In this document: piece after piece, positions 1,696-28,497 of the stretch
Layout of the letters: the number at the start of each line of letters is the position of its first letter
Numbering within the stretch: position 1 is the stretch's first letter
NCBI GenBank assembly: GCA_902540655.1
Contig: CACBNQ010000003.1
Coordinates: 8,599-72,598, forward strand
Direction of reading: 5' to 3'
DNA from: an uncultured Alphaproteobacteria bacterium
GTDB lineage: Bacteria; Pseudomonadota; Alphaproteobacteria; Rhodobacterales; Rhodobacteraceae
Length of the DNA: 64,000 nucleotides
Translations under genes and position numbers: made by a program
Notes under the pieces: generated by a model
Told to the model about the DNA's origin: nothing
The model's database searches: none
The model's input: only the letters and a program-made list of their open reading frames with translations

Positions 1696-1735
1696 AATGT
1701 TGTATTTTATCAACTAGATGATATTTTGATAAGTC

Positions 1736-1761
1736 AAAAAAAATGGCCGCTAAGCGACCAT
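1736..1761 (-). terminator. Rho-independent terminator downstream of the phasin gene
   Basis: Minus strand reads AUGGUCGC-UUA-GCGGCCAU: an 8-bp stem with one G.U pair and a 3-nt loop, followed by U8 (plus-strand A run 1736-1743). The plus-strand version has a C.A mismatch, so the structure is minus-strand specific. Lies between the phaP stop (1788) and the phaR start. Confidence 0.65.
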
Positions 1762-1787
1762 TTTAGGAGGAAATTTTTACGTAAAGT

Positions 1788-2195
1788 CTACTCTTTCGGA
1801 GACGAAGCTTTCTTTGTCACGTTGGTAAGCTCTTCCTGGGCATCTTTTCCGGCCTTCATCATCAAATCTATTGTTTCTAGCTGGGCCTTTTTAGCCACCT
1901 CTGCAAACTCTGCTATATGCTTTGGTGTGCTTTGGGTTTGTGAGCTCACGTAATCAGTGGCAATCTTCATAAAATCTTCAGGTTTTTCAGTACTTTTAAC
2001 AAAGGGGTCTAAGGCCGATAAACTTTCCTTTGCCCATGTCTGTGACAGCTCACTATTCTTTTTTACTGTGTCTAAAGCTATCTTCCCAAATTTTGAGTTA
2101 TAATCCATTATGGATTTCATTGCTTCATCGATTTTTATAGGGCTTTGTGACATCATTTTTTCAAAATTCTTAGTATAATCTTCAAAATTAAACAT
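1788..2195 (-). CDS. phaP: Phasin family protein (PHA granule-associated)
   Basis: Small, helical, Lys/Glu/Ala-rich protein between phaC and phaR. ATG at 2195 is preceded by AAGGAG (2207-2202). The track ORF extends to 2270, but the ATG with a Shine-Dalgarno is preferred. Confidence 0.7.
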   Translation of the reverse strand: MFNFEDYTKNFEKMMSQSPIKIDEAMKSIMDYNSKFGKIALDTVKKNSELSQTWAKESLSALDPFVKSTEKPEDFMKIATDYVSSQTQSTPKHIAEFAEVAKKAQLETIDLMMKAGKDAQEELTNVTKKASSPKE

Positions 2196-2212
2196 TTTCT
2201 GCTCCTTTTTAT

Positions 2213-2255
2213 ATGCGGATACAGCAATATATGCTGCATTTGCATAAAATGTCAA
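2213..2255 (-). promoter_or_regulatory. phaP promoter (TTGACA-N18-TATATT) overlapped by a TGC-rich palindrome, candidate PhaR operator
   Basis: Minus strand: TTGACA (2255-2250), an 18-nt spacer, then TATATT (2231-2226). CAGCA-atata-TGCTG (2222-2236) is nested in ATGC...GCAT (2213-2245). Confidence 0.45.
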
Positions 2256-2278
2256 TATATTTTTTTGCAATCGCAGAA

Positions 2279-4084
2279 TTACTTGTAATTTTTCATAACG
2301 TATTTGCCGGGTGCCAGCCCCAAAGAGGGATAGTCTTTATGAGAACCAGGCACATATGCTTTTTCATGGGAGCTAGATCTAGCTTTGATCCAGGTAGACC
2401 AATAGGGCCACCAAGATCCCTCATGTCGATCTGCAGTCTTAAACCAATCGTCGGGATCCGAAAATGATTTCGAGTTTGTCCAATAGCCATATTTCTTACT
2501 ATATGCTGGATTAATTATACCTGCAATATGTCCACTACCAGCTAAGACAAACCTTTTGTTACCTGAGGACTTATTTAAACCATAGAAGGATGATCGCCAA
2601 GGAGCAATATGATCAGTGTGCGTCGCTACAACGAAAATAGGTATATCAATGTATTTGAGTGAAAGCCTTTCCCCTATTAATGTTAATTCGCCTCTTGACA
2701 GTTGATTTTCTTTGTAAAAATTATTCAAATATTCCAGTGCCATTTTTCCAGGTAAATTGGTAGAATCTCCGTTCCAATAGAGCAAATCAAAACGAGGGGG
2801 CTTTTTCCCCATTAAATATGATCGAACAGCGGGCCCATAAACTAAATCATTTGAGCGTAAAAAACTGAAAGTTTGAGCAAGAAACGACCCTTCCATATAC
2901 CCTACCTTTTCGATTTGTCGATTTATCTCATCTAGATATTCATCTGTAATAAATAATGACAAATCTCCGGGGTCTTCAAAATCGGTTAGCGTAGTAAAAA
3001 AAGTTGCAGAATTAACGAAGTTTTCACCCTTTTTGCAAAGGTAAGATAAGGCCGTAGCTAAAAGTGTTCCTCCTATGCAGTATCCTATGCAATTTATTTT
3101 TTCCTGCTCTGTAATAGCTTTAACTACTTTTGAGGCTTCAAAAAAGCCTTTTTCAATATAATCTGTGAAATTAACCTCAGTATGCTCCTTACCAGGATTT
3201 ACCCAGGAGATAATAAACGTTGAAATGCCTTGTTCTACTGCGAATTTAACGAAACTATTTCTAGGTTGAAGGTCTAAATTATAAAACTTGTTTATCCAAG
3301 GAGGAACAATGAGTAGGGGAGTCTTTGAAACCGTCTCCGTAAGTGGCTTATAGTGTATTAACTCAAATAAATCATTTCTGAAAATAACCCGACCTTCAGT
3401 AATAGCAAGATTTTCTCCTACTTCAAATGCCTGTGTGTCTGTCAGGGATACTGTTAGATCACCAGTACTATTTTCTACATCAGTTACAAGATTTTCGAGA
3501 CCGTCAACCAAAGACTTTCCATTAGTTTCAAGAGCTTGTGTTAGAGCTTCGGGATTAGTTCCTAGAAAATTAGAAGGAGAAAAAAACTCAATCATCTGTT
3601 TGGTAAAAAAACTTATTTGCTTTTTATCAGACTTGCTCAATCCATCTAAATCATCAATTGTTTCTTCAATGATCTTTGACGATATAGTGTAATGCTGTTT
3701 TATTAGTTTAAAGTATAGGTTTTCATCCCAACCCTGATCAGTCTTTTCAGGCTCCTTATTTTGATCTTTTTTGGAACCAGCACTTTTAAGAATGTCATTT
3801 TGGATACTTGTCCAATTTTCCAAAGTCGACTTATAATATTTAACTTGATTTTCAATAAGCTTCGTTGGATTAGACAAAATCTCTGAAAAATATTTTGCAG
3901 AAGCTTTATAATATAACTCTTGAGAAGGTTGAGTTTTAACCTCAGGATCAGGTGTTTTAGAAGATAAAGCTATTACTAGTCGCTTTGTAAGCGTGTCTAT
4001 TTTGTCAAAATTGTTGAGTAATTCCTTGTATTCTTTCGGACCTACAGCAACGTCATCTTTCAGATTTTTGTTTTCTTCTTGCAC
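2279..4084 (-). CDS. phaC: Class I poly(R)-hydroxyalkanoic acid synthase PhaC
   Basis: 601 aa. Lipase-box-like GYCIGGT with the catalytic Cys. The PPWINKFY(N/I)LDL block and alpha/beta-hydrolase C-terminal half are typical of class I PhaC. Confidence 0.95.
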   Translation of the reverse strand: MQEENKNLKDDVAVGPKEYKELLNNFDKIDTLTKRLVIALSSKTPDPEVKTQPSQELYYKASAKYFSEILSNPTKLIENQVKYYKSTLENWTSIQNDILKSAGSKKDQNKEPEKTDQGWDENLYFKLIKQHYTISSKIIEETIDDLDGLSKSDKKQISFFTKQMIEFFSPSNFLGTNPEALTQALETNGKSLVDGLENLVTDVENSTGDLTVSLTDTQAFEVGENLAITEGRVIFRNDLFELIHYKPLTETVSKTPLLIVPPWINKFYNLDLQPRNSFVKFAVEQGISTFIISWVNPGKEHTEVNFTDYIEKGFFEASKVVKAITEQEKINCIGYCIGGTLLATALSYLCKKGENFVNSATFFTTLTDFEDPGDLSLFITDEYLDEINRQIEKVGYMEGSFLAQTFSFLRSNDLVYGPAVRSYLMGKKPPRFDLLYWNGDSTNLPGKMALEYLNNFYKENQLSRGELTLIGERLSLKYIDIPIFVVATHTDHIAPWRSSFYGLNKSSGNKRFVLAGSGHIAGIINPAYSKKYGYWTNSKSFSDPDDWFKTADRHEGSWWPYWSTWIKARSSSHEKAYVPGSHKDYPSLGLAPGKYVMKNYK

Positions 4085-4149
4085 TTTAATTGCTATCGTT
4101 ATTAATAGAGTAGATATAAAACCTTAATTTTAAAAAGCTAGTAAAAACT

Positions 4150-5376
4150 ATGCTATTACCTACATACGACTATTTCGAAAATTTAAGACAATACAATAAG
4201 TGGGTCGCGTCAACAACAAGAGCTTTTTGGGAAAATCCATTATTTGGTTTGTACCCAAGTCCTATTCCTTCAACTCTTGCAGCGTGGGGAAAGGTAACTG
4301 AGCACAGCTTATCAAGAATTACGTCTAAGCCTGACTGGGGAATAGACTCTGTTATTTCGGACGGGATTGAGTATCTTGTAGCGTTAGAGACAATTAAAGA
4401 ACTTCCTTTTTGTAATCTGATTAAATTTAAGAGCACACGACGAAAGAAAATAGATCGAAAAGTGCTAATCATTGCTCCAATGTCTGGACATTACGCAACG
4501 TTGACTAGAAATACTGTTATTTCTCTTCTTCCTAACTGTGATGTGTATGTGACTGACTGGATAAATGCCCGAGATGTTCCTTTTTCTGCAGGTAAGTTCG
4601 ATATTGAAGATTTTACAAAGTACTTGGTAGATTTTTTTCGTGATCTATCGCCAGACCTCAATGTTATGGCTGTTTGCCAACCAGCTCCTCTTGCGCTCGC
4701 AGCTGCAGCGATTACTTCAGAAAGATTTCCTGAATTTAATCCAAAATCACTTACTTTGATAGGTGGGCCAATCGATCCTGATGCCAATCCAACAGATGTC
4801 ACGGACTTTGGTCGCAGAACCTCGATGGAGGCACTTGAATCAACTGTAACCATGCCGGTCGGCTTGAATTATAAAGGAGTAGGACGTGAAGTATATCCAG
4901 GAGCAATCCAATTAGCGTCATTTATGGCAATGAACCAGGAGACTCATAGTAAAGCTTTTATCGATCAAATTGAAAAGGAAGCCGCCGGTCAAGCATCAGA
5001 ATACGATAGACATAACAAATTTTATGACGAATATCTAGCGGTTATGGATATGACAGCTGAATTTTATCTCTCGACAGTAGATAGGATATTTAAAAAGCGA
5101 GAGATCGCTAAGAATGAGTTTTCTATTGATGAACAACCTGTTGATCTTAGAAAAATCACTACCATTCCAACATTTATCATTGAAGGCACTAACGATGATA
5201 TTTCAGCACCTGGTCAATGCTCTGCAGCTTTAAATATTTTGAATAAGTTACCAAAAAATATGAAGTTTTCACATATACAAGATGGGGCAGGTCACTATGG
5301 TATTTTTAGTGGAAAGGCTTGGCGAACAGAGATACGGCCACTTTTTCTTGAATTTATAGATAATAAATTCAGTTAA
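4150..5376 (+). CDS. phaZ: Intracellular polyhydroxyalkanoate (PHB) depolymerase PhaZ
   Basis: Blocks PFCNLIKFK, APMSGHYATL, YVTDWINAR, VCQP, GGPIDP, FYDEYLAVMDMTAEFYL, EG.NDDIS and GHYGIFSG are colinear with the Cupriavidus PhaZa1-type intracellular depolymerase as I recall it. Confidence 0.9.
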   Translation: MLLPTYDYFENLRQYNKWVASTTRAFWENPLFGLYPSPIPSTLAAWGKVTEHSLSRITSKPDWGIDSVISDGIEYLVALETIKELPFCNLIKFKSTRRKKIDRKVLIIAPMSGHYATLTRNTVISLLPNCDVYVTDWINARDVPFSAGKFDIEDFTKYLVDFFRDLSPDLNVMAVCQPAPLALAAAAITSERFPEFNPKSLTLIGGPIDPDANPTDVTDFGRRTSMEALESTVTMPVGLNYKGVGREVYPGAIQLASFMAMNQETHSKAFIDQIEKEAAGQASEYDRHNKFYDEYLAVMDMTAEFYLSTVDRIFKKREIAKNEFSIDEQPVDLRKITTIPTFIIEGTNDDISAPGQCSAALNILNKLPKNMKFSHIQDGAGHYGIFSGKAWRTEIRPLFLEFIDNKFS

Positions 5377-5825: not shown

Positions 5826-7343
5826 ATGTCTAGTGAAATTAAAGCTACAATTCCTGGTGCTTCGCTTGCATCAACAATAAAAGTACTAGCGGGGCTTGGT
5901 CCACTTGGTGAAAAAGTTTTAAAGCAAAATGGAATAAGTGAGATTGATCCAAAAAAAAATTACCCGAGTTCCATTAGACTAAAAATATTTGAGGAGGTAA
6001 GAAGTAGATTTGGTACTGACGCATTATATGCAATTGGTATAGAGCAAGGGCTTTTAATGTTATCTATGCTACCTGATTTTGGTAAGTACATAGATAATTC
6101 TAGAAAAACATACTCGATGAGATCGGTGTCTTCAAACAATAGAACTAGAAATTTCAACTTTATAGATGAAACTTTGCCTGGGCTACAAAAAATTACAAAT
6201 GATTACATGGGGCAATTTCGTAGCAATAAGCTAAAAGGTGATATAGGTTTCAAACGTATATCAGAAGATACATGGGAAATGGCATTTGTTCTCGCTCAGC
6301 CATTGAAAAATTGGAAATTTGGAATTGGAAATTATCATATTTTTCTTATTAACCTTTTTGGCGATTTGTTCGATATTGATTATAAACTTGATGAAAAAAG
6401 TGAAGATATTGATGATGGTTGGTCAAGTGGAGCTTTTATCCTCAAATTTTTACCAAATGAGACTTTAAGGGATCAGAAAGAGATAATCGCAAATACAAGA
6501 CTTAAAGCGCATGAAGGTCTCATGAAAGCTGTTTTAGAGGATGCTGAACGAAAAAAAGAGGAAACCGAGAGGTTATCTGTAAATTTGGCTAAATACCTTC
6601 CTCCGCAAGTCCACGAAGCAATTTTTTCTGGTGAATTTGATACTGGAATTACTACAAAAAGACGTAAATTAACTATTTTTTTTAGTGATATCTCAAATTT
6701 TACATCTACCTCGGAAGGTCTTCAACCGGAAGATCTAACAAGGTATCTTAATGAATACTTTTCAGAGATGACTGATATTGCGCTCGATCACGGTGCAACA
6801 ATTGATAAATATATAGGAGACGCAATGATGGTATTTTTTGGTGACCCAGACAGTAAGGGGGAACAAGAAGATGCAAGAGCATGCGTTAAAATGGCATTGA
6901 AAATGCGCGATAGAATATCTGATTTACAAGATAAATGGCAAAAACAAGGTTTTGCAGATCCATTCGTGATTAGGATGGGCATGAATACTGGTTATTGTAA
7001 CGTAGGTAACTTTGGAAGCGACCAACGGCTTACTTATACAATTATTGGTAGTGAAGTAAATGTTGCTCAACGCTTGGAGGCATCAGCACAGCCAGGAGGG
7101 ATATTGATGTCTTATGAAACATACGCACACGCTCAGGACTTGATAGAAGTAGAGCAACTAAATAGCATTTCGATGAAAGGAGTAAAAAGAGAAATTAAAG
7201 TATTTTCGGTTTTAAATGAAATTAGACAGAGAAATAATAGAAAAGAATCTTCTCATAAAATAAAGAATGTTCCAGAAAGGATAGCGGATAGGCTGGATGC
7301 TCTCGAAACCAAAATTGAAGAGATTTTGGATCGGATAAAATGA
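5826..7343 (+). CDS. Class III adenylate/guanylate cyclase with an uncharacterised ~270-aa N-terminal domain
   Basis: C-terminal catalytic domain motifs FFSDISNFTS, IGDAMMVFFGDP, RMGMNTGYCNVGNFG and IIGSEVNVAQRLE. A coiled-coil linker precedes them. The N-terminal domain (IPGASLASTIKVLAGLGPLGEKVLK...) has no predicted TM segments and is not recognised. Confidence 0.9.
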   Translation: MSSEIKATIPGASLASTIKVLAGLGPLGEKVLKQNGISEIDPKKNYPSSIRLKIFEEVRSRFGTDALYAIGIEQGLLMLSMLPDFGKYIDNSRKTYSMRSVSSNNRTRNFNFIDETLPGLQKITNDYMGQFRSNKLKGDIGFKRISEDTWEMAFVLAQPLKNWKFGIGNYHIFLINLFGDLFDIDYKLDEKSEDIDDGWSSGAFILKFLPNETLRDQKEIIANTRLKAHEGLMKAVLEDAERKKEETERLSVNLAKYLPPQVHEAIFSGEFDTGITTKRRKLTIFFSDISNFTSTSEGLQPEDLTRYLNEYFSEMTDIALDHGATIDKYIGDAMMVFFGDPDSKGEQEDARACVKMALKMRDRISDLQDKWQKQGFADPFVIRMGMNTGYCNVGNFGSDQRLTYTIIGSEVNVAQRLEASAQPGGILMSYETYAHAQDLIEVEQLNSISMKGVKREIKVFSVLNEIRQRNNRKESSHKIKNVPERIADRLDALETKIEEILDRIK

Positions 7344-8902
7344 GCACACCCGCCATCAAAACAATAAATGAAATGAAGATACCAGGAGCCGCGCTAGCTT
7401 CCACGATAAAAGTGCTTGCTGGATTAGGGCCTTTGGGAGAAAGGGTTCTTAAAGAGCACGGAATTACTCAAATTGATAATGATAAAGAGTATCCCAGTCA
7501 TCTAAGAGCAAGAATTTTTGAGGAGATAAGAACCCGTTTCGGGAAAGAAGCACTTTATGCTATTGGGCTTGAACAAGGTATTTTAATGCTTTCAATAGTA
7601 CCTTCAATTGGCAAATTTATAGACGATTTCAGGATAAAATATAAAAAAGAGCTTTTAGATCACTCTAATTTCTCTAAAAACCTCAAGATTTTAGATCAAA
7701 CTCTGCCAGATTGGGAAAAAATAACAAATGATTACCTTGGGCAAATGCACAATGATAAAGTGCGATCTAAATTAAATTTTATAAAGATAGGTCCAGGTAA
7801 ATACGACGTGCCGGTTATAAGCTCTCAAGTAGTTGAAAATAACAATTTTTTTGAAGCCAACTATTCAGTTTTTTTGATAAGTATGTTTTCAGAACTCTTC
7901 GACATTAAAATGGCTATCGATGAAGAAAATAGTGAGGATATGGATAACGGTTTCAGCAGATACCAATATACAATAACTTTTAATCAACTACAAAAAACAA
8001 GGAACCATAAAGAACATTTAGCTGAAATCAGGTTTGATGCAAATCAACTTCTTTTGAGAAGGGTATTAGAGGAAGCAGAACAGCAAAAAAATCTAGTTCA
8101 AAAACAAAAAGAAGATACAGAAAAACTGTCTTCAAAACTAGGTAAGTATTTACCGCCTCAAATTCATAATGCGCTGTTTTCTGGCCAATTTGATACTGGA
8201 ATCGCAACCAAAAGAAAAAAACTAACTATTTTTTTTAGCGATATAAAAAACTTCACATCTTCATCGGAAGGTTTACAACCGGAAGATTTAACTAAATATC
8301 TAAATGAGTATTTCTCTGAAATGACTGACATAGCGCTTACTTATGGAGCAACGATAGATAAATATATTGGTGATGCGATGATGGTATTTTTTGGTGACCC
8401 AGAAAGCAAAGGAGAAAGAGAGGATGCAAGAGCATGTATAAAAATGGCTTTAAATATGCAAAGAAAAATAAAAAGCCTCCAAAGTAAATGGAGAAACGAG
8501 GGGTTTTATGAGCCATTCCAAATTAGAATGGGAATTAATACCGGCTATTGTAATGTCGGAAATTTTGGTAGTGAACAAAGGTTGACGTATACAATTATTG
8601 GAGGAGAGGTAAATATAGCCCAAAGATTAGAGGCTGCCGCGCCGAGTGATGGGATATTAATGTCCTATGAAAGCTATGCTCATGCACAAGATTTAGTCGA
8701 AGTAGATGAATTAAACTCAATTACTATGAAAGGTATTAATAGGGAAATCAAAGTGTTTTCAGTTATTCGTGATCTTAAAACGAAAAAAATAGCAAAAAAT
8801 GAGAGCAAGATATCTCCAATAAAAAGTGAAAGAAATTCACTCGAATTAAGGATAGAAAGGCTAGAAAAACTTATTTCTGAAATGATATCAAAAATAAATT
8901 AA
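7340..8902 (+). CDS. Class III adenylate/guanylate cyclase, tandem paralogue of the preceding gene
   Basis: Same architecture and very similar sequence over the whole length (IPGAALASTIKVLAGLGPLGERVLK...; FFSDIKNFTS; IGDAMMVFFGDP). The start overlaps the upstream stop as ATGA (7340-7343). Confidence 0.9.
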   Translation: MSTPAIKTINEMKIPGAALASTIKVLAGLGPLGERVLKEHGITQIDNDKEYPSHLRARIFEEIRTRFGKEALYAIGLEQGILMLSIVPSIGKFIDDFRIKYKKELLDHSNFSKNLKILDQTLPDWEKITNDYLGQMHNDKVRSKLNFIKIGPGKYDVPVISSQVVENNNFFEANYSVFLISMFSELFDIKMAIDEENSEDMDNGFSRYQYTITFNQLQKTRNHKEHLAEIRFDANQLLLRRVLEEAEQQKNLVQKQKEDTEKLSSKLGKYLPPQIHNALFSGQFDTGIATKRKKLTIFFSDIKNFTSSSEGLQPEDLTKYLNEYFSEMTDIALTYGATIDKYIGDAMMVFFGDPESKGEREDARACIKMALNMQRKIKSLQSKWRNEGFYEPFQIRMGINTGYCNVGNFGSEQRLTYTIIGGEVNIAQRLEAAAPSDGILMSYESYAHAQDLVEVDELNSITMKGINREIKVFSVIRDLKTKKIAKNESKISPIKSERNSLELRIERLEKLISEMISKIN

Positions 8903-9344: not shown

Positions 9345-10640
9345 TTATCTTTTTTTAAATCTATGCATTATTTTAACGTCATCTATCAAAATTCTTTTTG
9401 GAAACATGTGCGGTTGAAGCTTTTTTGATAAAAAACTTTTAAAATCCTTCATATCGAATGCACTTAAATCATTGGGTTGAATTATTAGTTCTACATGCTG
9501 CCCTGAAATCGGATTGCTTTTTGGCATTACTTTTACGAATTTAATGTTGTCGTAATCTAATGCAGTGTGTTCGATTTTAGAAGACATAAATTTTAATCCA
9601 CCTACATTTATAATTTCATTTGTCCGCCCAACAATTTTAATGTACTCGCCTTCGCTTTCAACAACGTCACCCGTATTGTACCAACCATTGTCATAGAATG
9701 GATCTTTTGAATTTAAATAACCGAGCATTCTATTTTTAGAAAAAATTTCAAGAACATTTTTTTTTACCCTTATTTTTATCCCTTCCCCACCAATTTTCAT
9801 AAATAAGCTATCCCTCTTCTTTGATTTTACTCTCAGAATTCCAAGCTCCGACATTCCATAAGTTTGCCTAAAATCAATATTGGGAAGTAGTTCACAGAGG
9901 CTCTTAAGGGTTTGAGCCTCCATTCTTTCAGTGCCATAAGTGATAATTTTTAGAGCTTTTGGAATTTTCCTTGGTATGAAACCACTGAGAAGTAGCAATC
10001 TTAAAAATGTTGGAGTTGTAGGCAATACCTCTACATTGTATTTTTCACAACTATCCAAAATTTGCTCTAATGATCTATCTTTTGGTGATATTATTTCACC
10101 ACAATTGAAAAGATTGTGAAAGAGAGTATTAATACCACCGATGTGATCGAATAACAAAAAGCTAATTGTTTTAAGCTTCACTCTTGGAGTTCGATACCTT
10201 ACAAGAAAACTTGAAAAATCGTGCAATATTGCTTTTGGATCACCGGTAGTTCCAGTGGTGAATAGAACCAACCCAGGGTGATTAATTTCTCTTATTTTTT
10301 GCAAAAGTTTATTGGAGCTATCGTGTGACCTCTCAGAGAGCACTCCATTTTCAATTATAAAATCAACATGAGCCGCTTCAAAAAAGTATTCATGTTGTTC
10401 TTTTGTATCCTTGGTCAGAGGAACGATTATTGTATTTAGATCAATTAAAGTAAGTAAAACAGATATAGTTTCAGCATCAAAATCACCAATTACTGCAACA
10501 ACTGAACCTGATGGAATCTGCAAAATCTGCTTGTTAAGGTTTCCTAATACATCATTAAAACTTAAATTACCGTTAGGATGAATCAAAAAAGGTCTGTCAA
10601 TATCGCGCCACTTATTAGTCAATTCAGTTACAATAGACAT
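9345..10640 (-). CDS. Adenylate-forming (AMP-binding) enzyme, DltA/acyl-carrier-protein ligase-like
   Basis: ANL superfamily motifs FTTGTTGDPK, TYGMSE, YNTGD and NVGGLK. Short (about 431 aa). ATG 10640 overlaps the SDR stop by 1 nt (TGATG). Confidence 0.85.
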   Translation of the reverse strand: MSIVTELTNKWRDIDRPFLIHPNGNLSFNDVLGNLNKQILQIPSGSVVAVIGDFDAETISVLLTLIDLNTIIVPLTKDTKEQHEYFFEAAHVDFIIENGVLSERSHDSSNKLLQKIREINHPGLVLFTTGTTGDPKAILHDFSSFLVRYRTPRVKLKTISFLLFDHIGGINTLFHNLFNCGEIISPKDRSLEQILDSCEKYNVEVLPTTPTFLRLLLLSGFIPRKIPKALKIITYGTERMEAQTLKSLCELLPNIDFRQTYGMSELGILRVKSKKRDSLFMKIGGEGIKIRVKKNVLEIFSKNRMLGYLNSKDPFYDNGWYNTGDVVESEGEYIKIVGRTNEIINVGGLKFMSSKIEHTALDYDNIKFVKVMPKSNPISGQHVELIIQPNDLSAFDMKDFKSFLSKKLQPHMFPKRILIDDVKIMHRFKKR

Positions 10641-11317
10641 CAAACTCCACCGATATTTAAAATTTGACCACTTAAAGAGCTACTTTTTTTATCCAACAAC
10701 AAGTCTACCAAATCACATACATCATCCAAATCAAATTGCCTATTTAAAATTTGCCTTTGTATTATTTCTGATATTTGCTTATCTGTAATCCCCTTTATGA
10801 GGTCTGTATTTATTGGGCCAGGCGCAATGCAATTCACTCTTATATTAAAATCTGCCATCTCTCTTGAAAATGCTCTTGTAAAACCCTCAACACCTGCTTT
10901 GGAGGCAACATAAATTGCTTCGCCTTTAAGAGCAAGAGGGACTGCAATTGTAGAGAAGTTAATTATTGACCCTTTTTTCTTTCTCATCATTAAAGGCGCA
11001 AAAAGCTGGCAACAATTAATAGTACCAACCAAATTGGTATTTATAATTTTAGAGGTAGCTGTAGGAGGAGAAGTGACTAAGAGATTCATTGAAGCTATCC
11101 CCGCAGCATTAATTAAAACATCAACATCTCTCTTATTTTTCTTTATTAATTTGACAACCTTTCTAACGTCCTGATAGTCACTCACATCACATGAGTGACC
11201 ATCGAAATCTGAACAACCAAAATTTCTAGACAAACCAAAAATTTCATGTCCTTGTTCCAACAATCTTAAGGATATTGCTCTTCCTATACCTTTTGAAGCA
11301 CCTGTTATAATAATCAT
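10640..11317 (-). CDS. Short-chain dehydrogenase/reductase (FabG-like)
   Basis: IIITGASKGIGRAIS (TGxxxGxG), NAAG and YVASKAGVEGF (YxxxK). ATGA overlap with the carrier-protein gene (11314-11317). Confidence 0.9.
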   Translation of the reverse strand: MIIITGASKGIGRAISLRLLEQGHEIFGLSRNFGCSDFDGHSCDVSDYQDVRKVVKLIKKNKRDVDVLINAAGIASMNLLVTSPPTATSKIINTNLVGTINCCQLFAPLMMRKKKGSIINFSTIAVPLALKGEAIYVASKAGVEGFTRAFSREMADFNIRVNCIAPGPINTDLIKGITDKQISEIIQRQILNRQFDLDDVCDLVDLLLDKKSSSLSGQILNIGGV

Positions 11318-11604
11318 TTTTGGTTAATATATTGATTAAGGATCTCATTAGACAAGCTTTCTACTGAAATAAACATACTTCTTGACTTAGACATTGCAGA
11401 CTCTGATTGCCAATCAAATTCAATATTTTTTTCAAAAAGTTTATCTTCCAATGCTAAACAAAGCTCTACCAATTTCATAGAGTCTATCACTCCATTTTCA
11501 CCTAATAAGTTAGTTTGCTCGCTGAAAACCACTTGTTGGTCTTCATGCTCAAATATTTCTTCCAGAGAAGAAATAACCAAATTTATAATTTCTGTTTTTT
11601 CCAA
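11314..11604 (-). CDS. Acyl/aminoacyl carrier protein (DltC/ACP-like)
   Basis: 96 aa, acidic, with a GVIDSMKLVEL phosphopantetheine-attachment-type DSx motif. Lies between a ligase/SDR pair and an MBOAT pair. Confidence 0.75.
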   Translation of the reverse strand: MEKTEIINLVISSLEEIFEHEDQQVVFSEQTNLLGENGVIDSMKLVELCLALEDKLFEKNIEFDWQSESAMSKSRSMFISVESLSNEILNQYINQK

Positions 11605-11617
11605 AACCCAAACTCCC

Positions 11618-12490
11618 TCAATTTATACAATCTTGTATTTTGATTGAAATGTTATTCGATAATTTTTTAACGCTATCCTCTAAAAAATGAACCCCATCAT
11701 AGTAGTTAAGTTTAGACGAATAATCTGAAAAATCTATAATGCAGATTTTTTGAGACTCAAAAGAATGTATCATTTCTTTAAACCTATGGTAATTTTCTAA
11801 GCCCCAATGCTCTATTCTTCTTTTATAAAAGGGAGGAATTACAATCATAACATTATTTGATTTCATTTCTGCGCTCGAAAAAGTGGCTTTAAAAGCATCA
11901 ATATTTAATTGTTCAGGGAAATCTTTGAAAACTTTTTTTTCTTCCCAATTATCAAATTTATTTTCTGACCGTACCCTTGCCACCCCATTTTCATTAGCGT
12001 AAAGTTTACAGATAGTTATAACTTGACAGAAAAGATTTTTAAAAAAACTAAAATGAAAAGTCATTAATATTCGCTCTTGATAGGTTAAGCTTTTCCAATC
12101 TTTTACTATCGGTACCGCTGGCCTTCCGAGGTAGGGCTCAGCAATGAAAACAGCATTATTTATACTATCTAATTGACCAAGAAGTATATTTATGTCTACT
12201 AATTTACTCCCTGCGATAGAAGCATTATAGAAAATATTTCCGTTCTTATCTTGAAGTTCAATAGGTTCAGCCATACTTGCTCCGAAAACTAAATTTTTAT
12301 TTTCGTTTTGGGCTTTGAAAATTATGTATGGCTTAAAGAATTGGTCATCAAAAAAAATGTTTAAATGAAGGTATTTTTTTGACATTGCGTAATCGAATAG
12401 CATTAAAATAAAGAACGCTAAGCATGGGACTAACATCGCCCTCAATAAAAGTCGGCACATATTAAGAAAACCTAACCAATTAAAAGTCAT
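11618..12490 (-). CDS. Membrane-anchored SGNH/DltD-AlgJ-like O-acyltransferase partner protein
   Basis: N-terminal TM segment (LLLRAMLVPCLAFFILMLF). FGASM (block I Ser-like) and DGVHF (block V Asp..His-like). Overlaps the MBOAT gene by 11 nt. Confidence 0.55.
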   Translation of the reverse strand: MTFNWLGFLNMCRLLLRAMLVPCLAFFILMLFDYAMSKKYLHLNIFFDDQFFKPYIIFKAQNENKNLVFGASMAEPIELQDKNGNIFYNASIAGSKLVDINILLGQLDSINNAVFIAEPYLGRPAVPIVKDWKSLTYQERILMTFHFSFFKNLFCQVITICKLYANENGVARVRSENKFDNWEEKKVFKDFPEQLNIDAFKATFSSAEMKSNNVMIVIPPFYKRRIEHWGLENYHRFKEMIHSFESQKICIIDFSDYSSKLNYYDGVHFLEDSVKKLSNNISIKIQDCIN

Positions 12491-13793
12491 TATAAATAAA
12501 ACCTTTCTGAGAAGATGTTATATAAAAGGTGATGAAGACAAATACTAAAGTTGAAAACAAAATAGTTGAATTAGAAACGTAATTCTTTATCGAGGACTTT
12601 AATCCAGCTGGAAAAAAAAGTATAACTATCCCTAGAAAAAGAAAAAGTGTGGTTTCTACTACTTTTTCTCCATCAAAATAAATATTAAGTGTTTCTATTC
12701 CTAAAAAGTTTAGCTCCCTTCCAATGGAATACATTGAAAAAATTAAGTCCTTTGCACCTTCAATACTATGAGTGCCAAAAAAAGCCATCGTATGCAGTAT
12801 AAAAAATAGGGTTAAGAAATTTGAAACTAAGAAGTTCAACTTAATTTTCTCCTTAAAGAGATTTTGAACAAATAACCCAATCCCATTTAAAGCGCCCCAA
12901 ATAACGTAATTCAAAGTGAATCCATGCCAAAACCCACTCAACACCATAGTAGATATAGAGGAAATAAAATATGCAAACAGTATATTATTCTTAGTTAGAA
13001 ATTTGAAGATAGTAGAGGATACCACTACTATAAAAAATCGTGATACAGTAATGTGCCACCGCAACCAATAATCTGAAAGAGAGCGGGATAAAAATGGTGA
13101 ATTAAAGTTCTCGGGCAAAGTTATTCCAATCCAACGAGAACCTCCAATTATTATGTCGCAAATGCCACTGAAATTAAAATATAAATAAATCCAAAATGCT
13201 GTTACATAAGACCAAGCTTCAAGTACACTGAAGTTTGAAATATCTTTTTGCTCAACAGGTAAATAAAATTGACCTATATATTCGGCAAAAACAAATATTT
13301 TTATTGTTCCAGAAATTATTCGGAATAAGCACTTAGATTGAATATTATAATCTTTGGAAATATTCTTAAATTTTATAAAATCTAAGTATCGGTATACGGG
13401 TCCTGAAGAAAAAACAGGGAAATAAATAGAAAAGGTAAAATAATCTTTTAGTGACATTTTTTCAGGCTTTCGAGAAATCAAAAAGAAAATCTGAATAAAA
13501 AATACATAGCTTAAACCAAGAAATGGCTCATAAAATATTCTTATGGAAAGTAGATAGAGAATGTTGAATAGAAAAAAAATTTGGTTTTTATTTTCTAATT
13601 TTAGGCGGTAGAGAATAAAGTAATTTATAGCTATGTATATTATGATAATGAAAACATCAAATTTTACAAAAATGGTTATGAATGCGAAGCTGAAAAATAA
13701 AAGAAAGTAATTCAGTTGAGTGTCTTTAATGTTCAAACTGTTAAACATCAAGATTGTAAGAAAAATGAATAATAAAAATACTTCAAAAAACAT
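12480..13793 (-). CDS. MBOAT family membrane-bound O-acyltransferase (DltB/AlgI-like)
   Basis: Polytopic, 437 aa. SDYWLRWHITVSRFF and SGFWHGFTLNYVIWG contain the conserved MBOAT His residues. Confidence 0.85.
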   Translation of the reverse strand: MFFEVFLLFIFLTILMFNSLNIKDTQLNYFLLFFSFAFITIFVKFDVFIIIIYIAINYFILYRLKLENKNQIFFLFNILYLLSIRIFYEPFLGLSYVFFIQIFFLISRKPEKMSLKDYFTFSIYFPVFSSGPVYRYLDFIKFKNISKDYNIQSKCLFRIISGTIKIFVFAEYIGQFYLPVEQKDISNFSVLEAWSYVTAFWIYLYFNFSGICDIIIGGSRWIGITLPENFNSPFLSRSLSDYWLRWHITVSRFFIVVVSSTIFKFLTKNNILFAYFISSISTMVLSGFWHGFTLNYVIWGALNGIGLFVQNLFKEKIKLNFLVSNFLTLFFILHTMAFFGTHSIEGAKDLIFSMYSIGRELNFLGIETLNIYFDGEKVVETTLFLFLGIVILFFPAGLKSSIKNYVSNSTILFSTLVFVFITFYITSSQKGFIYNDF

Positions 13794-14299
13794 CGTTTAA
13801 CTCCGTTATAACGCAATCTCAGATTAGAAGATGTTTTCTAATTGCATTTACAAACAAAGCCACACTACGCTTTAAGAAATCGATATGCAAGATTATTTGA
13901 AAAATTTGGTTATATATTTTTTTTACTAATTAAAGTTAAATAATATTAGTTCGATGGCGACAATTTCTTATATATGAATGAGCTGCTCTGACAAAAAATA
14001 AAAACCAGGCATACACAAACTCCATAAGTTAGCTGATTAAACTTGAACAATAAAAGCAGATTCTTGCTCTACCTTATCCTGGGGAAACAGTACATCTAAC
14101 CCCGAAGATCTTATGGAGCTAATTATATTAATTTTTTGCTTTTACAATTGCTAAAAAAAAGAAATAGCTTTGGTAAAATACAAGCAAAGTAACCGTAGGC
14201 TGACAAGAAGCCTTAATAGATATTTTCATCAATTACTAAAAAGTTTAAATAAATGATTTTTAACTGAAATTTTTCTTCATCTAATCTTCTTTTATTAAT

Positions 14300-14821
14300 T
14301 CAAGTCCTGAGCCATACCCATAGATAAACTCTTAATGAGAAAATCTCAGACAAAAAAGGGTAATAGACATGTGGCCTTTTTTCTAGGTTTTCGATGTAGC
14401 CTCTAGATAAATTGTTTTCTTTCGCTGCATTAATTAAAATTTTTAAATATCGTTTTGATGGAGGAATATCTTTTGTTTCTTCAGTTTTATAAATCAACGT
14501 GTATGCTGTTTCCCTTTTACCATCTTTATAAACTGATAATTTTTCTAGCTGATAATCCTCCCCTTCTGTATTAACAATTTTCTGCAAATCTTTGTCATTA
14601 ATTTTATGTATTACACCCTCAACTGTGGAACCATTGGAAGGCCTGATATTTGCAAAAGAAGGTTCTAAAAAATTTGGTCCACCCATATTCATTATCAATT
14701 CGTAATCTTTTAAAACCCCAACTTTGCTCTCGTGGGGAATAATTTTTCTTCTTTTTATTAGATATTGAGTTGACATATTTGACCCATATCCAAAATAAAG
14801 AATAGTATTTGCTCTAACCAT
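14300..14821 (-). CDS. Gamma-glutamylcyclotransferase (AIG2/GGCT-like) family protein
   Basis: N-terminal LYFGYGSNMS motif and a length typical of the GGCT fold. Confidence 0.7.
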   Translation of the reverse strand: MVRANTILYFGYGSNMSTQYLIKRRKIIPHESKVGVLKDYELIMNMGGPNFLEPSFANIRPSNGSTVEGVIHKINDKDLQKIVNTEGEDYQLEKLSVYKDGKRETAYTLIYKTEETKDIPPSKRYLKILINAAKENNLSRGYIENLEKRPHVYYPFLSEIFSLRVYLWVWLRT

Positions 14822-15759: not shown

Positions 15760-17043
15760 CTACACTGTTAATTTATGGAGTGTTATTTTTTTATCTCTTC
15801 CCCGAACCTCAAAATTCTTTACTTCTTCTGTAGGTAAGTTTTCACTGAGTCGCAATTTAACTTCGTCAGAAATTAAAACATCGGATTTCACCTCTTTACA
15901 CGCCTCACAAATTCTACTGGCTACGTTAACGGTATCTCCAATGACTGTGAATTCTACACGGTCTTCACTTCCGACGTTTCCAACGAAGCAAGAACCATAA
16001 TGAACACCAACGCGATGTCTGATAGCGGGCAAATCATTTTCAGACCGTTCTTTCTCCCATTCTCGCATTGAGATTTGCATCTGTCTTATACAATTTAAAG
16101 CGTTTTGAGCATCATTCCCTCTAGAAACAGGTGTACCAAACGTCGCCATGACGCTATCACCAATAAATTTATCAACGGATCCTCCATTTTGGAAAACTGC
16201 AGCAACCATTTTTGTTTGGTACTCCGAAAGTAAATTAAGTACCTCCTTAGGTTCCAAGCCCTCAGATAGCTTAGTAAAATCAGAAATATCAGTAAACATT
16301 ACGGCTATGTTTTGCTCTTTTTCAGAATTTTGATTGAAATCAAGCTTATTTTTTTCAATCTCATCTCTTACTTCAGGTGAAAAATATCTTCCTAGCAGAT
16401 TATTAGATCTTTCTTGAAGAGTTGCTTCTCTAAGATTGCTTTCAATAACCCATGCTAGGGTAACCAATCCAACAGCCACTACAATTAAATAAGTAATATT
16501 TTGACCGAATATCCCTCCATTTATTGCATTAATATTTGTTGCTATCTCATTGTAATTAAACGAAAAAAATACCTCTCCTCGATTGTATGTACTGAATGCT
16601 TGGAGAAGCGCAATGGCAAAGTTGTATACAATAAAAAATATAGATAAATAGAACCTAGCAAATAAAATAGATACAACCATAGGTCCGGCAGCCCCCACAA
16701 AAGCATAATCCATCAATCTTGCTCCAAAAAGTTCATTTGCACCTACCATTGAAAACTCATAATTTATGACTGCACCAAAAAGTAAGGGGAAAGCTATCTG
16801 CATAGCCACAGCAAAGAAAAGACAAATATTATAATTCTCGTCCTTAATAAGTGTAGCTATAGCACCAAAGGTAATAAAACCAGTTACCATGATAACAGTA
16901 GATAATTGCTTTACGAGCAAAGTTTCGAGTCCAGGAACAAAAGTAATATTAAGAAAACCAATAAGGTATAAACCAAACAAGGTTATTGAGGCTAACCTAA
17001 GGCCTTTTACATATCGCTTGTTTATAAAAAGCTCGTTTTCCAT
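15760..17043 (-). CDS. Membrane-anchored class III adenylate/guanylate cyclase
   Basis: About 6 N-terminal TM helices. Catalytic domain motifs VMFTDISDFTKL, FIGDSVMATFG, RVGVHYGSCFVGNVG and VIGDTVNVASR. Confidence 0.9.
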   Translation of the reverse strand: MENELFINKRYVKGLRLASITLFGLYLIGFLNITFVPGLETLLVKQLSTVIMVTGFITFGAIATLIKDENYNICLFFAVAMQIAFPLLFGAVINYEFSMVGANELFGARLMDYAFVGAAGPMVVSILFARFYLSIFFIVYNFAIALLQAFSTYNRGEVFFSFNYNEIATNINAINGGIFGQNITYLIVVAVGLVTLAWVIESNLREATLQERSNNLLGRYFSPEVRDEIEKNKLDFNQNSEKEQNIAVMFTDISDFTKLSEGLEPKEVLNLLSEYQTKMVAAVFQNGGSVDKFIGDSVMATFGTPVSRGNDAQNALNCIRQMQISMREWEKERSENDLPAIRHRVGVHYGSCFVGNVGSEDRVEFTVIGDTVNVASRICEACKEVKSDVLISDEVKLRLSENLPTEEVKNFEVRGRDKKITLHKLTV

Positions 17044-17144
17044 CTTTACTAAATAAGTTTATAATATGGACCATGTTCTTATAAATACGGACACTAAGCA
17101 AGTGTTGAGTGCAAACAATTACACAAAAAAGAGTTTAAGTGGAA

Positions 17145-19046
17145 TTAAGAGGAGATGCCTGCCTTCTCCAAAGTGTTAGCAAGCTTTCCCATGAAAGGTC
17201 TATCCATAATAATAAAGGTTTTCATGGCTCTTCTTAATTTTTTAAAATTAACACTACCATCGATTTTTAATATCCTTTCGGCTACTTTCTTAGCGTCATT
17301 TGACCTACCCTCTTCCATATCTATAAAGGCCCTGATTCCAAGAGCCCCTATTTGTGACCCTCCAAAATATTGTTCATTTTCTGATAAATCAGACGCCAAC
17401 TTATAGGCTTTCTCATACTCTTTCAAATATGTAAGAGCCAAAGCATAGTTTAACTTTACATTTCCTGGTGGATGAGGAGCTACTTTTAAAGCTTTTTCAT
17501 AATTTTCAACCGCCTGGTCATACAGGCCTACGATAAAAAGAGAATTTGCGGCAGATAGAATACTGATTATATTAGAAGGATTTAAATCTGATGCTTTTAT
17601 CGCAAACTTTCTTGCAGCATCAAACAACTCATCTTCGGTGTACTCCGGAAACTCTTTTGGGTTTTTTGCCATAAGTCCCGCTAAAAGACTATTAGCATCT
17701 GATAAATCTGGACCGTATTGAACTGCTCGCCGAGCAGTTTCTATCATATCTTTACCAATATTCCAATCACGTAGCCCAACACTCGCTTGGGCAGTAAAAT
17801 ACCAAGCATACATAGATAGAACAACGGGGTTATTTGGTTCTGTTTCAAAAATAGCATCAAATAGAGTTCCAGCCTCTTTTACTCCGTCTAGTGACATTGA
17901 AAGCCAAAGAGAATTCGCTTTTAAAAATCTTTGCCAATTTTCAGGACTCTTAAAATATCTTCTGTCGTCATCAAAGGATGTACCTAACGTCAATTTAACT
18001 TGTAATTTTTCTAAAACTTTTTCGGAAATCGTATCTTGAATTTCAAATATATCTTTAAGTTTGAAATCATATTTGTTTGTCCAGACAATTCTGTTCTTTA
18101 CGATGTCTGAAAGTTCGACTGTAGTTCTAATTTTTTCTCCTGAAACTTGGTTATAGCCTCTTAAGATGTAATTTACAAAATATTCATTTTTTATTTCTTG
18201 ATCAGACATACCTTTTTTCTTTATGAAATTACTAGTGCTGCTTGATTGCACTAAAAGTCTTGGATAACCAGCCAATGAAGAGATAATTATATCAGTCATC
18301 CCACTACTGAGCTGGTCGTCTGATTTATTTCCTGATCTATTTTCAAATGGCATTACTAAAACCATTGGCCTATCGGACTCGGCAATAATTTGTTCAGCAT
18401 TCTTTATTTCCGTATCGTCATTTAAATAAAAGGAAAATACACCTATAACTGATACTAAAATGCCTGCAGCTAGAATACTTATAAGATCTTTTGACCGCCT
18501 AGGCTTCAGAGATCTTTTTTGGGAAGGATCTAATACAATATCAAAAGCATGGAATTCATTTTGTTTTACTTTTTGAATGCCAAGATCATTGAATTGATGT
18601 TTTGTTTTACCTTTCACATAATCAAAAACACTCTTAGATACTGAGATTCCGCCCGCTAATGCTAATGCTTCTAGTCGAGCTGCTATATTAACCCCTTCAC
18701 CTAATAAATTTCCCTTTTCCTTAATTACATCTCCCGTATTGATACCAATACGAAATTCTAGCGTAACTTTTGTAGATGATGATGCATAACTAGTTTTTAT
18801 CTTTTTTTGAAACTCGACAGCGCAATCGACCGCATCCACAGCGCTAACAAATTCCGCCATAAAAGAGTCGCCCCCCGAATTAAATAAATTGCCATTATAT
18901 TTTTTAAACAACCCTTTAAGTATCTTTTCATAAAACCTAAGACTTTTTACAGTCTCACTTTCATCTATTTCCATATGCTTACTGTAATTCACTACGTCAG
19001 TAGCAAAAATTACAGCAATCTTTCGGTCAATTTCCTTAGTGGGCAT
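17145..19046 (-). CDS. Class III adenylate cyclase fused to a TM segment and a periplasmic TolB-N-like/TPR region
   Basis: N-terminal cyclase domain (IFATDVVNYS, GGDSFMAEF, RIGINTGDV, GEGVNIAARLE), one TM (ILAAGILVSVIGVFSFYL), then TPR-like repeats (YEKAYKLA, YDQAVENYEKALKVAP). Confidence 0.85.
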   Translation of the reverse strand: MPTKEIDRKIAVIFATDVVNYSKHMEIDESETVKSLRFYEKILKGLFKKYNGNLFNSGGDSFMAEFVSAVDAVDCAVEFQKKIKTSYASSSTKVTLEFRIGINTGDVIKEKGNLLGEGVNIAARLEALALAGGISVSKSVFDYVKGKTKHQFNDLGIQKVKQNEFHAFDIVLDPSQKRSLKPRRSKDLISILAAGILVSVIGVFSFYLNDDTEIKNAEQIIAESDRPMVLVMPFENRSGNKSDDQLSSGMTDIIISSLAGYPRLLVQSSSTSNFIKKKGMSDQEIKNEYFVNYILRGYNQVSGEKIRTTVELSDIVKNRIVWTNKYDFKLKDIFEIQDTISEKVLEKLQVKLTLGTSFDDDRRYFKSPENWQRFLKANSLWLSMSLDGVKEAGTLFDAIFETEPNNPVVLSMYAWYFTAQASVGLRDWNIGKDMIETARRAVQYGPDLSDANSLLAGLMAKNPKEFPEYTEDELFDAARKFAIKASDLNPSNIISILSAANSLFIVGLYDQAVENYEKALKVAPHPPGNVKLNYALALTYLKEYEKAYKLASDLSENEQYFGGSQIGALGIRAFIDMEEGRSNDAKKVAERILKIDGSVNFKKLRRAMKTFIIMDRPFMGKLANTLEKAGISS

Positions 19047-20840: not shown

Positions 20841-21509
20841 TTATTTTTTTAAACTCAGCTTGTAAATTTTTTCTTTTGCTAGAGGAAATATTTCGTATTG
20901 GGCATCAAATAACTCTTGTATTTGTGCGCTCTTAATAGAGAGGCCTCCCGTATAATAACCATATGATGGCATTAATATTCTTTTTTTATTTAATACAAAG
21001 CATGCAACCCAAATTCCTCCAGCATTAATTATAAGCTTAACTTTTGGATGATAGTGACCAAAAACAGAAAACCTCTGATCAATTGACGGGTAATGACTGA
21101 AACAAATACCATCAATAACAACCTTGTCAGTTAAGGTTAATCCAATATCTTCTAGAAAACTTATATTATCATGGTTACCAACAGTTAAGGTACAATCTAT
21201 ATTTTTAAGGATTCTAAAAAAAATTTCTTTTGATTTTGCAGTCATCCTTTGAAAGGCAAATTTGTCATGGATCAAATCGCCTAGAAAAATTATCTTTTCG
21301 ACAGGATGATTGTTTATAAAATTTGAAAGTTGTCTAAGCGTCTCAATAGTATCAAATGGTGGAATATACTGATTTGACTCAGTGAAAAAAGAACCTTTTT
21401 CAAAGTGTAGATCAGAAATAATCAAAGTCTTTTTACTTGGCCAATAAAGTTCACCATTTGCAAAGAAGGAAAACTTTTTATCAGCAAAAATAACGTCCTT
21501 ATGATGCAT
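20841..21509 (-). CDS. pdeM: Ligase-associated DNA damage response metallophosphoesterase/endonuclease PdeM (MPE)
   Basis: Calcineurin-like phosphoesterase motifs DLHFEKG, GDLIHD, GNHD and GHYHP. Overlaps the lhr gene by 11 nt. Confidence 0.8.
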   Translation of the reverse strand: MHHKDVIFADKKFSFFANGELYWPSKKTLIISDLHFEKGSFFTESNQYIPPFDTIETLRQLSNFINNHPVEKIIFLGDLIHDKFAFQRMTAKSKEIFFRILKNIDCTLTVGNHDNISFLEDIGLTLTDKVVIDGICFSHYPSIDQRFSVFGHYHPKVKLIINAGGIWVACFVLNKKRILMPSYGYYTGGLSIKSAQIQELFDAQYEIFPLAKEKIYKLSLKK

Positions 21510-23883: not shown

Positions 23884-23933
23884 GTCAATTGGATTATGTT
23901 TAAAACTTACAGTAATAACTAATCTTTCTAAAT

Positions 23934-27808: not shown

Positions 27809-27817
27809 GTAATTTTC

Positions 27818-28495: not shown

Positions 28496-28497
28496 TT

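Follow-up and report, generated by a model that had tools for sequence, protein, structure and literature searches.

A five-gene operon in an uncultured alphaproteobacterium pairs a widespread carrier-SDR-ligase cassette with an MBOAT bearing a fused acyl-shuttle motif

Can an MBOAT of the type that carries its own acyl-shuttle motif be fed by a dedicated carrier protein? The question is raised by five genes at positions 9345-13793, on the reverse strand, of a 64,000-nucleotide stretch (here the window) of contig CACBNQ010000003.1, from assembly GCA_902540655.1 of an uncultured member of the Rhodobacteraceae. Two kinds of bacterial MBOAT envelope acylation have been distinguished: Dlt, which uses a carrier and a separate DltX and transfers D-alanine, and the rest, which use acyl-CoA and a fused shuttle and transfer acetyl groups (PMC12148441). 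The operon described here pairs a carrier-loading module with a fused-shuttle MBOAT and would blur that division. We put the probability that it encodes a hybrid, carrier-fed MBOAT pathway exporting a reduced (hydroxy) acyl group at roughly one in two.

Operon layout

All five genes are co-directional. In order of transcription they encode an MBOAT (13793-12480, 437 amino acids [aa]), a 290-aa protein with a transmembrane (TM) anchor, here called X290 (12490-11618), a 96-aa carrier protein with a TTG start (11604-11314), a 225-aa short-chain dehydrogenase/reductase (SDR; 11317-10640) and a ligase (10643-9345) of 432 aa if started from TTG or 431 aa from ATG. Read directly, the junctions were very tight: the MBOAT and X290 genes share 11 nt, the carrier and SDR genes overlap by 4 nt (ATGA), and the SDR and ligase genes meet at TGATG, an overlap of 1 nt with the ATG start or 4 nt with the TTG start. 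X290 and the carrier gene are separated by a 13-nt gap, with a GGGAG ribosome-binding site 8 nt before the carrier TTG. The 506-nt intergenic region upstream of the MBOAT gene (13794-14299) held no open reading frame (ORF) of note and presumably contains the operon promoter; a promoter and terminator scan of the operon gave results no better than those for shuffled sequence. Past the 3' end of the ligase gene lies a cyclase gene in convergent orientation. Owing to this tight packing, the long upstream region and the convergent downstream gene, the unit looks like a self-contained five-gene operon. Its GC content (29-33%) is lower than the window average of about 36%. The gene coordinates and overlaps listed in an initial annotation of this DNA were all correct, and every motif it quoted was located in the sequences.

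The MBOAT has a DltB-like fold and a fused shuttle motif

The 437-aa protein matched Pfam MBOAT at 7.8e-18, and its sole NCBIfam match was the DltB equivalog TIGR04091 (7.8e-37, 127 bits versus a cutoff of 375). Among solved structures, sequence searches recovered DltB only (PDB 6bug, 2e-21). An AlphaFold2 model built with 120 homologues (pLDDT 83.3, pTM 0.84) returned the DltB chains 6bug_C and 8jem_A as its best Foldseek matches (E about 4e-12, TM-score 0.66-0.71), so the fold as modelled is DltB-like. The protein has about nine hydrophobic segments, and its MBOAT motifs, WLRWH at 243 (W243-x3-H247) and FWHG at 288, were located; W243, H247 and His290 (GFWHG) are invariant alignment columns.

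Overlooked in the initial annotation was the C-terminus, which ends in the hexapeptide FIYNDF (residues 432-437, positions 12483-12500 on the reverse strand), an FXYXXF motif centred on Tyr434. FXYXXF is an acyl-shuttle motif whose tyrosine is acylated in both DltX and PatA; in PatA and other acetyl-CoA-dependent MBOATs it is fused to the enzyme and sits on two extra C-terminal helices (PMC12148441). Two such additional helices were predicted in the window MBOAT (375-393 and 407-425, at low local confidence in the AlphaFold2 model), in agreement with hydrophobic segments at 378-396 and 409-427. No DltX-like small ORF with a terminal FXYXXF was found in the interval that separates the MBOAT gene from its upstream neighbour. 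Since the motif is fused and the two extra helices are present, sequence and model together place the MBOAT in the PatA/AlgI architectural type rather than the DltB type, though its overall fold is DltB-like.

The MBOAT had no close relatives, its best matches being 34-38% identical over half its length and mainly from Chloroflexi. A terminal FXYXXF was also found in 19 of 119 other homologues examined, and other FXYXXF MBOATs have a partner gene directly downstream. One of these pairs (locus L096, 5541-10860) comprises an MBOAT ending in FIYANF and a 339-aa partner with no precomputed Pfam family on record, in which a hydrophobic N-terminus, an early GS motif (FLAGSNG) and a C-terminal DxxxHP (DSVYHPN) could be recognised by eye. 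The pair adjoins a P22-like tailspike (Head_binding/pectate-lyase), a gp16 homologue and an integrase, and looks like a prophage-borne, serotype-converting O-acylation module. The Chloroflexi MBOATs, as the closest homologues, were first taken as models, and were set aside as a different subclass because they have no terminal FXYXXF and align over only half of the protein. On two Chloroflexi/Anaerolineae contigs (L001, 8001-16295; L002, 8001-14139) the MBOAT is followed by a 366-394-aa protein without a Pfam family that carries a canonical GDS motif (VYGDSSVWG or LIGDSSTWG) and, further along the same strand, by paralogous secreted-looking proteins, a PP-binding carrier and a 563-566-aa AMP-binding ligase. 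These loci may represent a Dlt-like, carrier-dependent MBOAT system.

Carrier, reductase and ligase

The carrier was barely recognised by Pfam and had only weak NCBIfam matches (DltC model, 1e-4, 22 bits versus a cutoff of 68); Pfam PP-binding did not detect its family. A profile of 35 sequences of that family matched more than 50 chains of acyl carrier proteins (ACPs), DltC and peptidyl carrier proteins at E values of 0.002-1, with ACPs and DltCs matched about equally (0.002-0.1). The invariant Ser42 (codon 11479-11481), within LIG-x4-LDSMKLVEL (DSM at 41), aligns with the phosphopantetheine serine of those chains and is presumed, by that alignment, to be the phosphopantetheine site. The C-terminal half of the family is strongly conserved (GFEFDWTS..AMSxSRSMFRT, with F63, D64, W65, S67 and S72 invariant), unlike typical ACPs.

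The SDR was clear-cut at the family level (Pfam adh_short, 5e-45), with all motifs present: TGASKGIG at 5, NAAG, Ser122, Y136-x3-K140 (YVASK at 136) and PG. It matched 3-oxoacyl-ACP reductase models at 1.9e-49, every one below cutoff, and reached 168.5 bits against the FabG equivalog TIGR01830 (cutoff 297.75). By these sequence criteria it is a classical SDR that is FabG-like, but not demonstrably FabG, and it presumably acts as a ketoreductase on a carrier-bound acyl group.

The ligase matched Pfam AMP-binding at 1.4e-18 and contained the core motifs of the ANL superfamily (TTGTTGDPK at 129, YGTERM at 236, YNTGD at 322 within WYNTGD, GRTNE at 339 and HRFKK at 427), in columns that were invariant or near-invariant across a 16-sequence alignment. 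Its best NCBIfam matches were to models of fatty-acid-CoA ligases and MenE, none of which came near its cutoff, and the family profile matched 4-chlorobenzoate-CoA ligase, oxalyl-CoA synthetase, FadD10 and MenE in the PDB. DltA was absent from the best 25 NCBIfam matches and from the 25 PDB matches at E <= 1e-10. As the ligase is not DltA, the system is not one of D-alanylation, which bears out the earlier suggestion that the substituent would be something other than D-alanine; the nearest relatives of known structure are acyl- and aryl-CoA ligases. The presumed role of the ligase is to charge the carrier with a small acid. Domain calls in the initial annotation were thus upheld by Pfam for the MBOAT, SDR and ligase, and by weak matches and the family profile for the carrier, whereas an SGNH/DltD-like assignment of X290 received no database support.

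An apparently mobile cassette with varying acyltransferases

The last three genes of the operon recur together far beyond the Rhodobacteraceae. Ligase homologues 57-61% identical to that of the window were found across Bdellovibrionota, Verrucomicrobiota, Alpha- and Gammaproteobacteria and others, with more than 6000 matches in the protein database, and the family occurs in at least 550 GTDB species-representative genomes. The best 80 GTDB loci come from more than 10 phyla, among them loci of Prochlorococcus, Pelagibacteraceae, SAR116, Chloroflexota, Planctomycetes, Bacteroidota, Actinobacteria, Acidobacteriota and Gemmatimonadota; the cassette is also carried by SAR11/SAR116, Verrucomicrobia, Bordetella, Aeromonas and Francisella metagenome-assembled genomes. 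It had no match in complete Escherichia coli genomes. We searched 83 ligase loci (L003-L085, the same set from which the carrier alignment was made) with the window proteins using tblastn, and found the SDR in all 83 and the carrier in 79. The order was always carrier-SDR-ligase, with ends abutting or overlapping, and the genes were of stable size (carrier about 91-101 aa, SDR 225 aa, ligase about 431 aa). Identities to the window proteins were 48-59% for the ligase, 44-69% for the SDR and 34-58% for the carrier, and in order, size and identity the window trio are clear members. Since the SDR was present at every locus, syntenic with the other two genes, it is an obligate part of the cassette, and a lack of SDR synteny in relatives, which the initial annotation named among the findings that would count against its reading, is clearly not what was seen.

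What follows the cassette varies. We evaluated 73 ORFs located just 3' of the ligase, on either strand, and about half matched soluble acyltransferase families in Pfam: GNAT Acetyltransf_3 (19), Hexapep (10, of which 6 were PglD_N), FabH-like ACP_syn_III (4) and Antibiotic_NAT (3). Some of the remaining ORFs had no family. Two of the first three loci inspected lay within O-antigen-like clusters with RmlA-D, FdtA, a DegT aminotransferase, glycosyltransferases and AT3-SGNH genes, while other copies were stand-alone four-gene modules with an acyltransferase, often beside guaA or guaB (L005, L009 and others). Among 132 ORFs upstream of the cassette, GMP synthase domains were found in 7 and IMPDH in 4, an adjacency that suggests either that insertion at this site recurs or that there is a functional link not yet recognised. 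As the upstream contexts are heterogeneous, the cassette appears to move as a unit, and the several types of soluble acyltransferase that follow the ligase point to a donor module with swappable acyltransferases. A mobile acyl-donor module of this kind is the simplest reading of the locus comparisons, and its product is most likely a hydroxy-acyl-carrier used for acylating amino sugars or similar targets. The cassette appears to be uncharacterised so far: we found no literature describing it, and no curated NCBIfam model reached its cutoff on the cassette proteins.

The cassette of the window has no soluble acyltransferase beside it. The MBOAT and X290 stand upstream of the carrier instead, and are the sole acyltransferase candidates in the window. 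What the initial annotation took for a complete Dlt set with an embedded SDR is better described as a fusion of a mobile cassette with an MBOAT of PatA/AlgI architecture and its presumed partner. Replacement of the soluble acyltransferase by MBOAT and X290, in the window and probably also on the TARA scaffold described below, suggests that acyl transfer takes place outside the cytoplasm rather than as cytoplasmic N-acylation of a nucleotide sugar.

X290, an orphan protein linked to the cassette

X290 has one N-terminal TM helix (14-32) and a predicted soluble domain of about 255 aa. It had no Pfam match even at E <= 10 and no NCBIfam match, and neither the single sequence nor a two-sequence profile matched any sequence in the PDB. 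Profile alignment (hhalign) against E. coli TesA was negative, as was hmmsearch against the partners of other MBOATs (the Chloroflexi GDS-motif proteins, an ALGX protein and the L096 partner). A single-sequence AlphaFold2 model had a pLDDT of 41 and was unusable, its Foldseek matches being meaningless. Searches with phmmer of two collections of 5.8 billion and 1.84 billion proteins returned only X290 itself and one 48-aa fragment. Metagenome scans with alignment-derived patterns yielded no more relatives, and the hits of a degenerate VFGASMAEP pattern were all due to chance, in contigs of high GC.

The fragment proved informative. It was traced to a TARA ocean scaffold (ERZ28654064 / SAMEA6053293; 2646 bp, 27% GC; L086) on which a 5'-truncated SDR gene (69% identity) precedes a ligase gene (60-66%), with an X290 homologue starting 40 nt past the ligase. 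This homologue is essentially full-length, aligning over residues 1-288 and broken only by a scaffold N-gap, with 58% identity overall and 54-62% in two tblastn segments. Here X290 occupies the acyltransferase slot after the ligase, an order different from that in the window, so that two genomes, differing in gene order, link X290 to the cassette. This linkage is the best evidence that X290 may act on the product of the carrier-SDR-ligase cassette.

Three blocks are kept in both X290 sequences: VFGAS72MAEP, just after the TM anchor (FGASM at 69); FYNA(S/A)IAG94SKLVDINILL; and YYD265GVH268 near the C-terminus (DGVH at 265). They resemble, respectively, SGNH block I (at GAS72), block II of TesA (NASISGD) and block V (DGIHP in TesA), and their spacing resembles that of the L096 partner. 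This motif-level likeness is suggestive of an SGNH-like transferase. As a transferase family, X290 may represent a new fold or an extremely divergent SGNH protein.

Proposed pathway

We propose that the operon consists of two modules. The first (carrier, SDR and ligase) would produce, in the cytoplasm, an acyl donor in activated form: a small carboxylic acid, for which an oxo-acid like acetoacetate is the most plausible candidate, would be adenylated by the ligase and loaded onto the phosphopantetheine arm at Ser42 of the carrier, where the FabG-like SDR would reduce the oxo group to give a hydroxy-acyl thioester. The second module (MBOAT and X290) stands where a soluble N-acyltransferase stands in other genomes, and the structure of the operon suggests that the carrier hands its acyl group to the MBOAT. 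The tunnel of the MBOAT would admit the acyl-phosphopantetheine arm, and His290 would catalyse transfer of the acyl group to Tyr434 of the fused FIYNDF at the outer face of the membrane. X290 would then accept the group, probably on Ser72 together with Asp265 and His268, and esterify an extracytoplasmic acceptor presumably encoded elsewhere.

Our leading guess for the group transferred is 3-hydroxybutanoyl, a common non-acetyl acyl group on bacterial glycans. The guess is based on this commonness, on the FabG/PhaB-like character of the SDR and, weakly, on a nearby polyhydroxybutyrate (PHB) cluster. A complete PHB gene set lies at 1099-5376, 4-8 kb from the operon, comprising the regulator PhaR (1099-1713), a phasin (1788-2270) and the synthase PhaC (2279-4084), all on the reverse strand, and an intracellular PHB depolymerase (4150-5376) on the forward strand. 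That these genes supply 3-hydroxybutyrate or acetoacetate to the ligase is speculative, and we count the link as no more than a weak hint, since many genomes have the cassette but no PHB genes beside it.

Comparison with known systems

With Dlt (DltA, DltC, DltB, DltX and DltD) the operon shares a ligase-loaded small carrier, a DltB-like MBOAT fold with an invariant histidine, a gene for a TM-anchored partner beside the MBOAT gene and, as expected from FXYXXF, the acyl-shuttle chemistry. It differs in that its ligase is not DltA, its SDR is obligatory and its predicted acyl group is not D-alanine; the carrier has a conserved C-terminal half of its own, X290 is without the DltD signature, and the shuttle motif is on the MBOAT, which has extra C-terminal helices that are missing from DltB, rather than on a DltX microprotein. 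Extra C-terminal helices ending in FXYXXF are instead shared with PatA/PatB (peptidoglycan), AlgI/AlgJ/AlgF/AlgX (alginate) and WssH/WssI (cellulose); PatA of Neisseria gonorrhoeae, for example, ends in FIYANF where the window MBOAT ends in FIYNDF. Also common to these pairs is a partner gene directly downstream with an N-terminal TM anchor, although X290 is not a recognisable SGNH or AlgX protein. PatAB-type systems have no carrier, ligase or reductase, and non-Dlt MBOAT/SGNH pathways were stated to operate without a carrier protein in a 2025 mechanistic paper (PMC12148441), in agreement with the initial annotation, whereas the window operon has a complete carrier-loading module. This gene context argues against an acyl-CoA donor used without a carrier, as in the PatAB type.

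Dedicated ligases and carriers are known from other Gram-negative envelope decorations, namely AlmEFG of Vibrio cholerae, which adds glycine to lipid A, and the RfbK-O tetronate module of V. cholerae O1, in which the group on the carrier is also tailored reductively. Neither uses an MBOAT as its transferase (AlmG is LpxM-like), both transfer the group at the cytoplasmic face, and the protein families differ from those of the window. In the literature that we searched we found no description of a carrier-dependent MBOAT other than Dlt and nothing that matches the operon, as the initial annotation had anticipated in calling it a candidate undescribed system. We tentatively suggest, with somewhat less confidence than we attach to a hybrid pathway as such, that it is the first carrier-fed MBOAT pathway outside Dlt, in which a mobile cassette that makes a hydroxy-acyl-carrier has been rewired from acylation in the cytoplasm, presumably of sugars, to export across the membrane through a PatA-type MBOAT with its fused tyrosine shuttle, with X290 delivering the group to an envelope polymer. 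If so, MBOAT shuttle enzymes would accept acyl-carrier proteins besides acyl-CoA, and surface polymers would be esterified by this route with groups that are neither acetyl nor aminoacyl, widening the range of acyl substituents. The cassette itself probably supplies acyl groups other than acetyl for surface glycans, and such decorations influence serotype as well as recognition by phages and by the immune system.

Alternative explanations

Several observations weigh against a carrier-fed pathway. Every characterised MBOAT with a fused FXYXXF uses acyl-CoA and not a carrier protein (PMC12148441). No MBOAT was detected by tblastn or profile hidden Markov model within 10 kb of the cassette in more than 80 other loci, so that the pairing in the window is unusual and the coupling of carrier and MBOAT rests on one complete instance; the TARA scaffold stops 3 nt after its X290 homologue, too early to show any MBOAT gene that might follow. 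The carrier matches ACP profiles weakly. X290 has no detectable similarity to DltD, SGNH, AlgX or the partners of related MBOATs, a canonical SGNH block III (GxND) is not evident in it and its structural model was unusable. Genes for synthesis of an acceptor were not found nearby among the window ORFs that we scanned, which comprised the majority of ORFs of 120 aa or more from position 19 to position 63278.

The same absence of MBOATs from other cassette loci, together with the PatA/AlgI architecture and its consistent use of acyl-CoA, would fit two independent modules that happen to share a transcript: an acetyl-CoA-dependent MBOAT-X290 pair of the PatA/PatB or AlgI/AlgJ type, and a cassette that feeds an acyltransferase encoded elsewhere. 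The varied upstream contexts of the cassette (guaA, guaB), which moves as a unit, are compatible with such a chance juxtaposition. That X290 is also found with the cassette elsewhere, in a second genome and in another gene order, is hard to explain if the two are unrelated, however, and about half of the downstream ORFs scanned were the cassette's own adjacent acyltransferase, a role for which MBOAT and X290 are the only candidates in the window. The gene overlaps and the 13-nt gap with its ribosome-binding site also argue for co-translation. We consider independent modules unlikely, though they are the most serious rival to the hybrid pathway. The TARA scaffold also invites another view, in which X290 is itself the acyltransferase of the cassette, belonging to a new, membrane-anchored family and receiving the acyl group straight from the carrier at the cytoplasmic face to pass it on to, for example, a lipid-linked intermediate or a membrane lipid, leaving the MBOAT an accessory role or another step. 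There, X290 lies in the exact slot held elsewhere by GNAT, LbH, FabH-like or NAT enzymes; its dissimilarity to SGNH, DltD and AlgX also speaks for this view, and the charges around its TM helix leave the orientation unfixed. This proposal sits less well with the 11-nt overlap of the X290 and MBOAT genes, which fits the order commonly seen, MBOAT first and partner next, and with the shuttle tyrosine fused to the MBOAT, which implies an extracytoplasmic acceptor enzyme; the serine motif just past the TM anchor and the spacing of the C-terminal D-G-V-H likewise fit SGNH-type partners. We rate it slightly below independent modules, and also unlikely.

That the genes form a true Dlt system, D-alanylating a polymer similar to teichoic acid, is very improbable. 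Such a system would account for DltB being both the sole NCBIfam match and the best PDB match of the MBOAT, and for the weak matches of the carrier to DltC models, but the DltB score is far under its cutoff, X290 has no match to the DltD family (PF04914), and there is no DltX microprotein, the motif being fused to the MBOAT. The 431-aa ligase, closest to acyl- and aryl-CoA ligases, and the obligatory linkage of the SDR to carrier and ligase point in the same direction. The carrier-fed hybrid pathway remains our preferred reading.

Other features of the window

In the neighbourhood scan no glycosyltransferase, flippase, polymerase or export gene was found among the ORFs covered, so the initial statement that no glycosyltransferase or polymer-export genes adjoin the operon holds within that scope. 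The window contains no rRNA or tRNA. On the operon's strand, 506 nt upstream of the MBOAT gene, lies a gamma-glutamylcyclotransferase-like (AIG2/GGACT) gene (14300-14821), and nothing points to its membership of the operon. The operon is flanked on both sides by class III adenylate/guanylate cyclase paralogues, four in all (5826-8902 and 15760-19046): a tandem pair whose N-terminal domains are similar (5826-7343 and 7340-8902), one with a multi-TM N-terminus (15760-17043) and one with TPR repeats (17145-19046). Between the cyclases, at 8-16 kb, GC content is 29-33%, below that of the rest of the window. Further along is a nucleic-acid repair cluster of four genes (20841-26491), encoding a metallophosphoesterase (20841-21509), an Lhr-type helicase with a DEAD_assoc domain (21499-23883), a metallo-beta-lactamase-fold protein (23934-24923) and an ATP-dependent DNA ligase (24923-26491). 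It is followed at 26492-29394 by a three-gene, split glutamate-synthase-like set (Glu_synthase domain, GXGXG domain and GATase_6), which is adjoined by an arginase-family gene (30059-31087).

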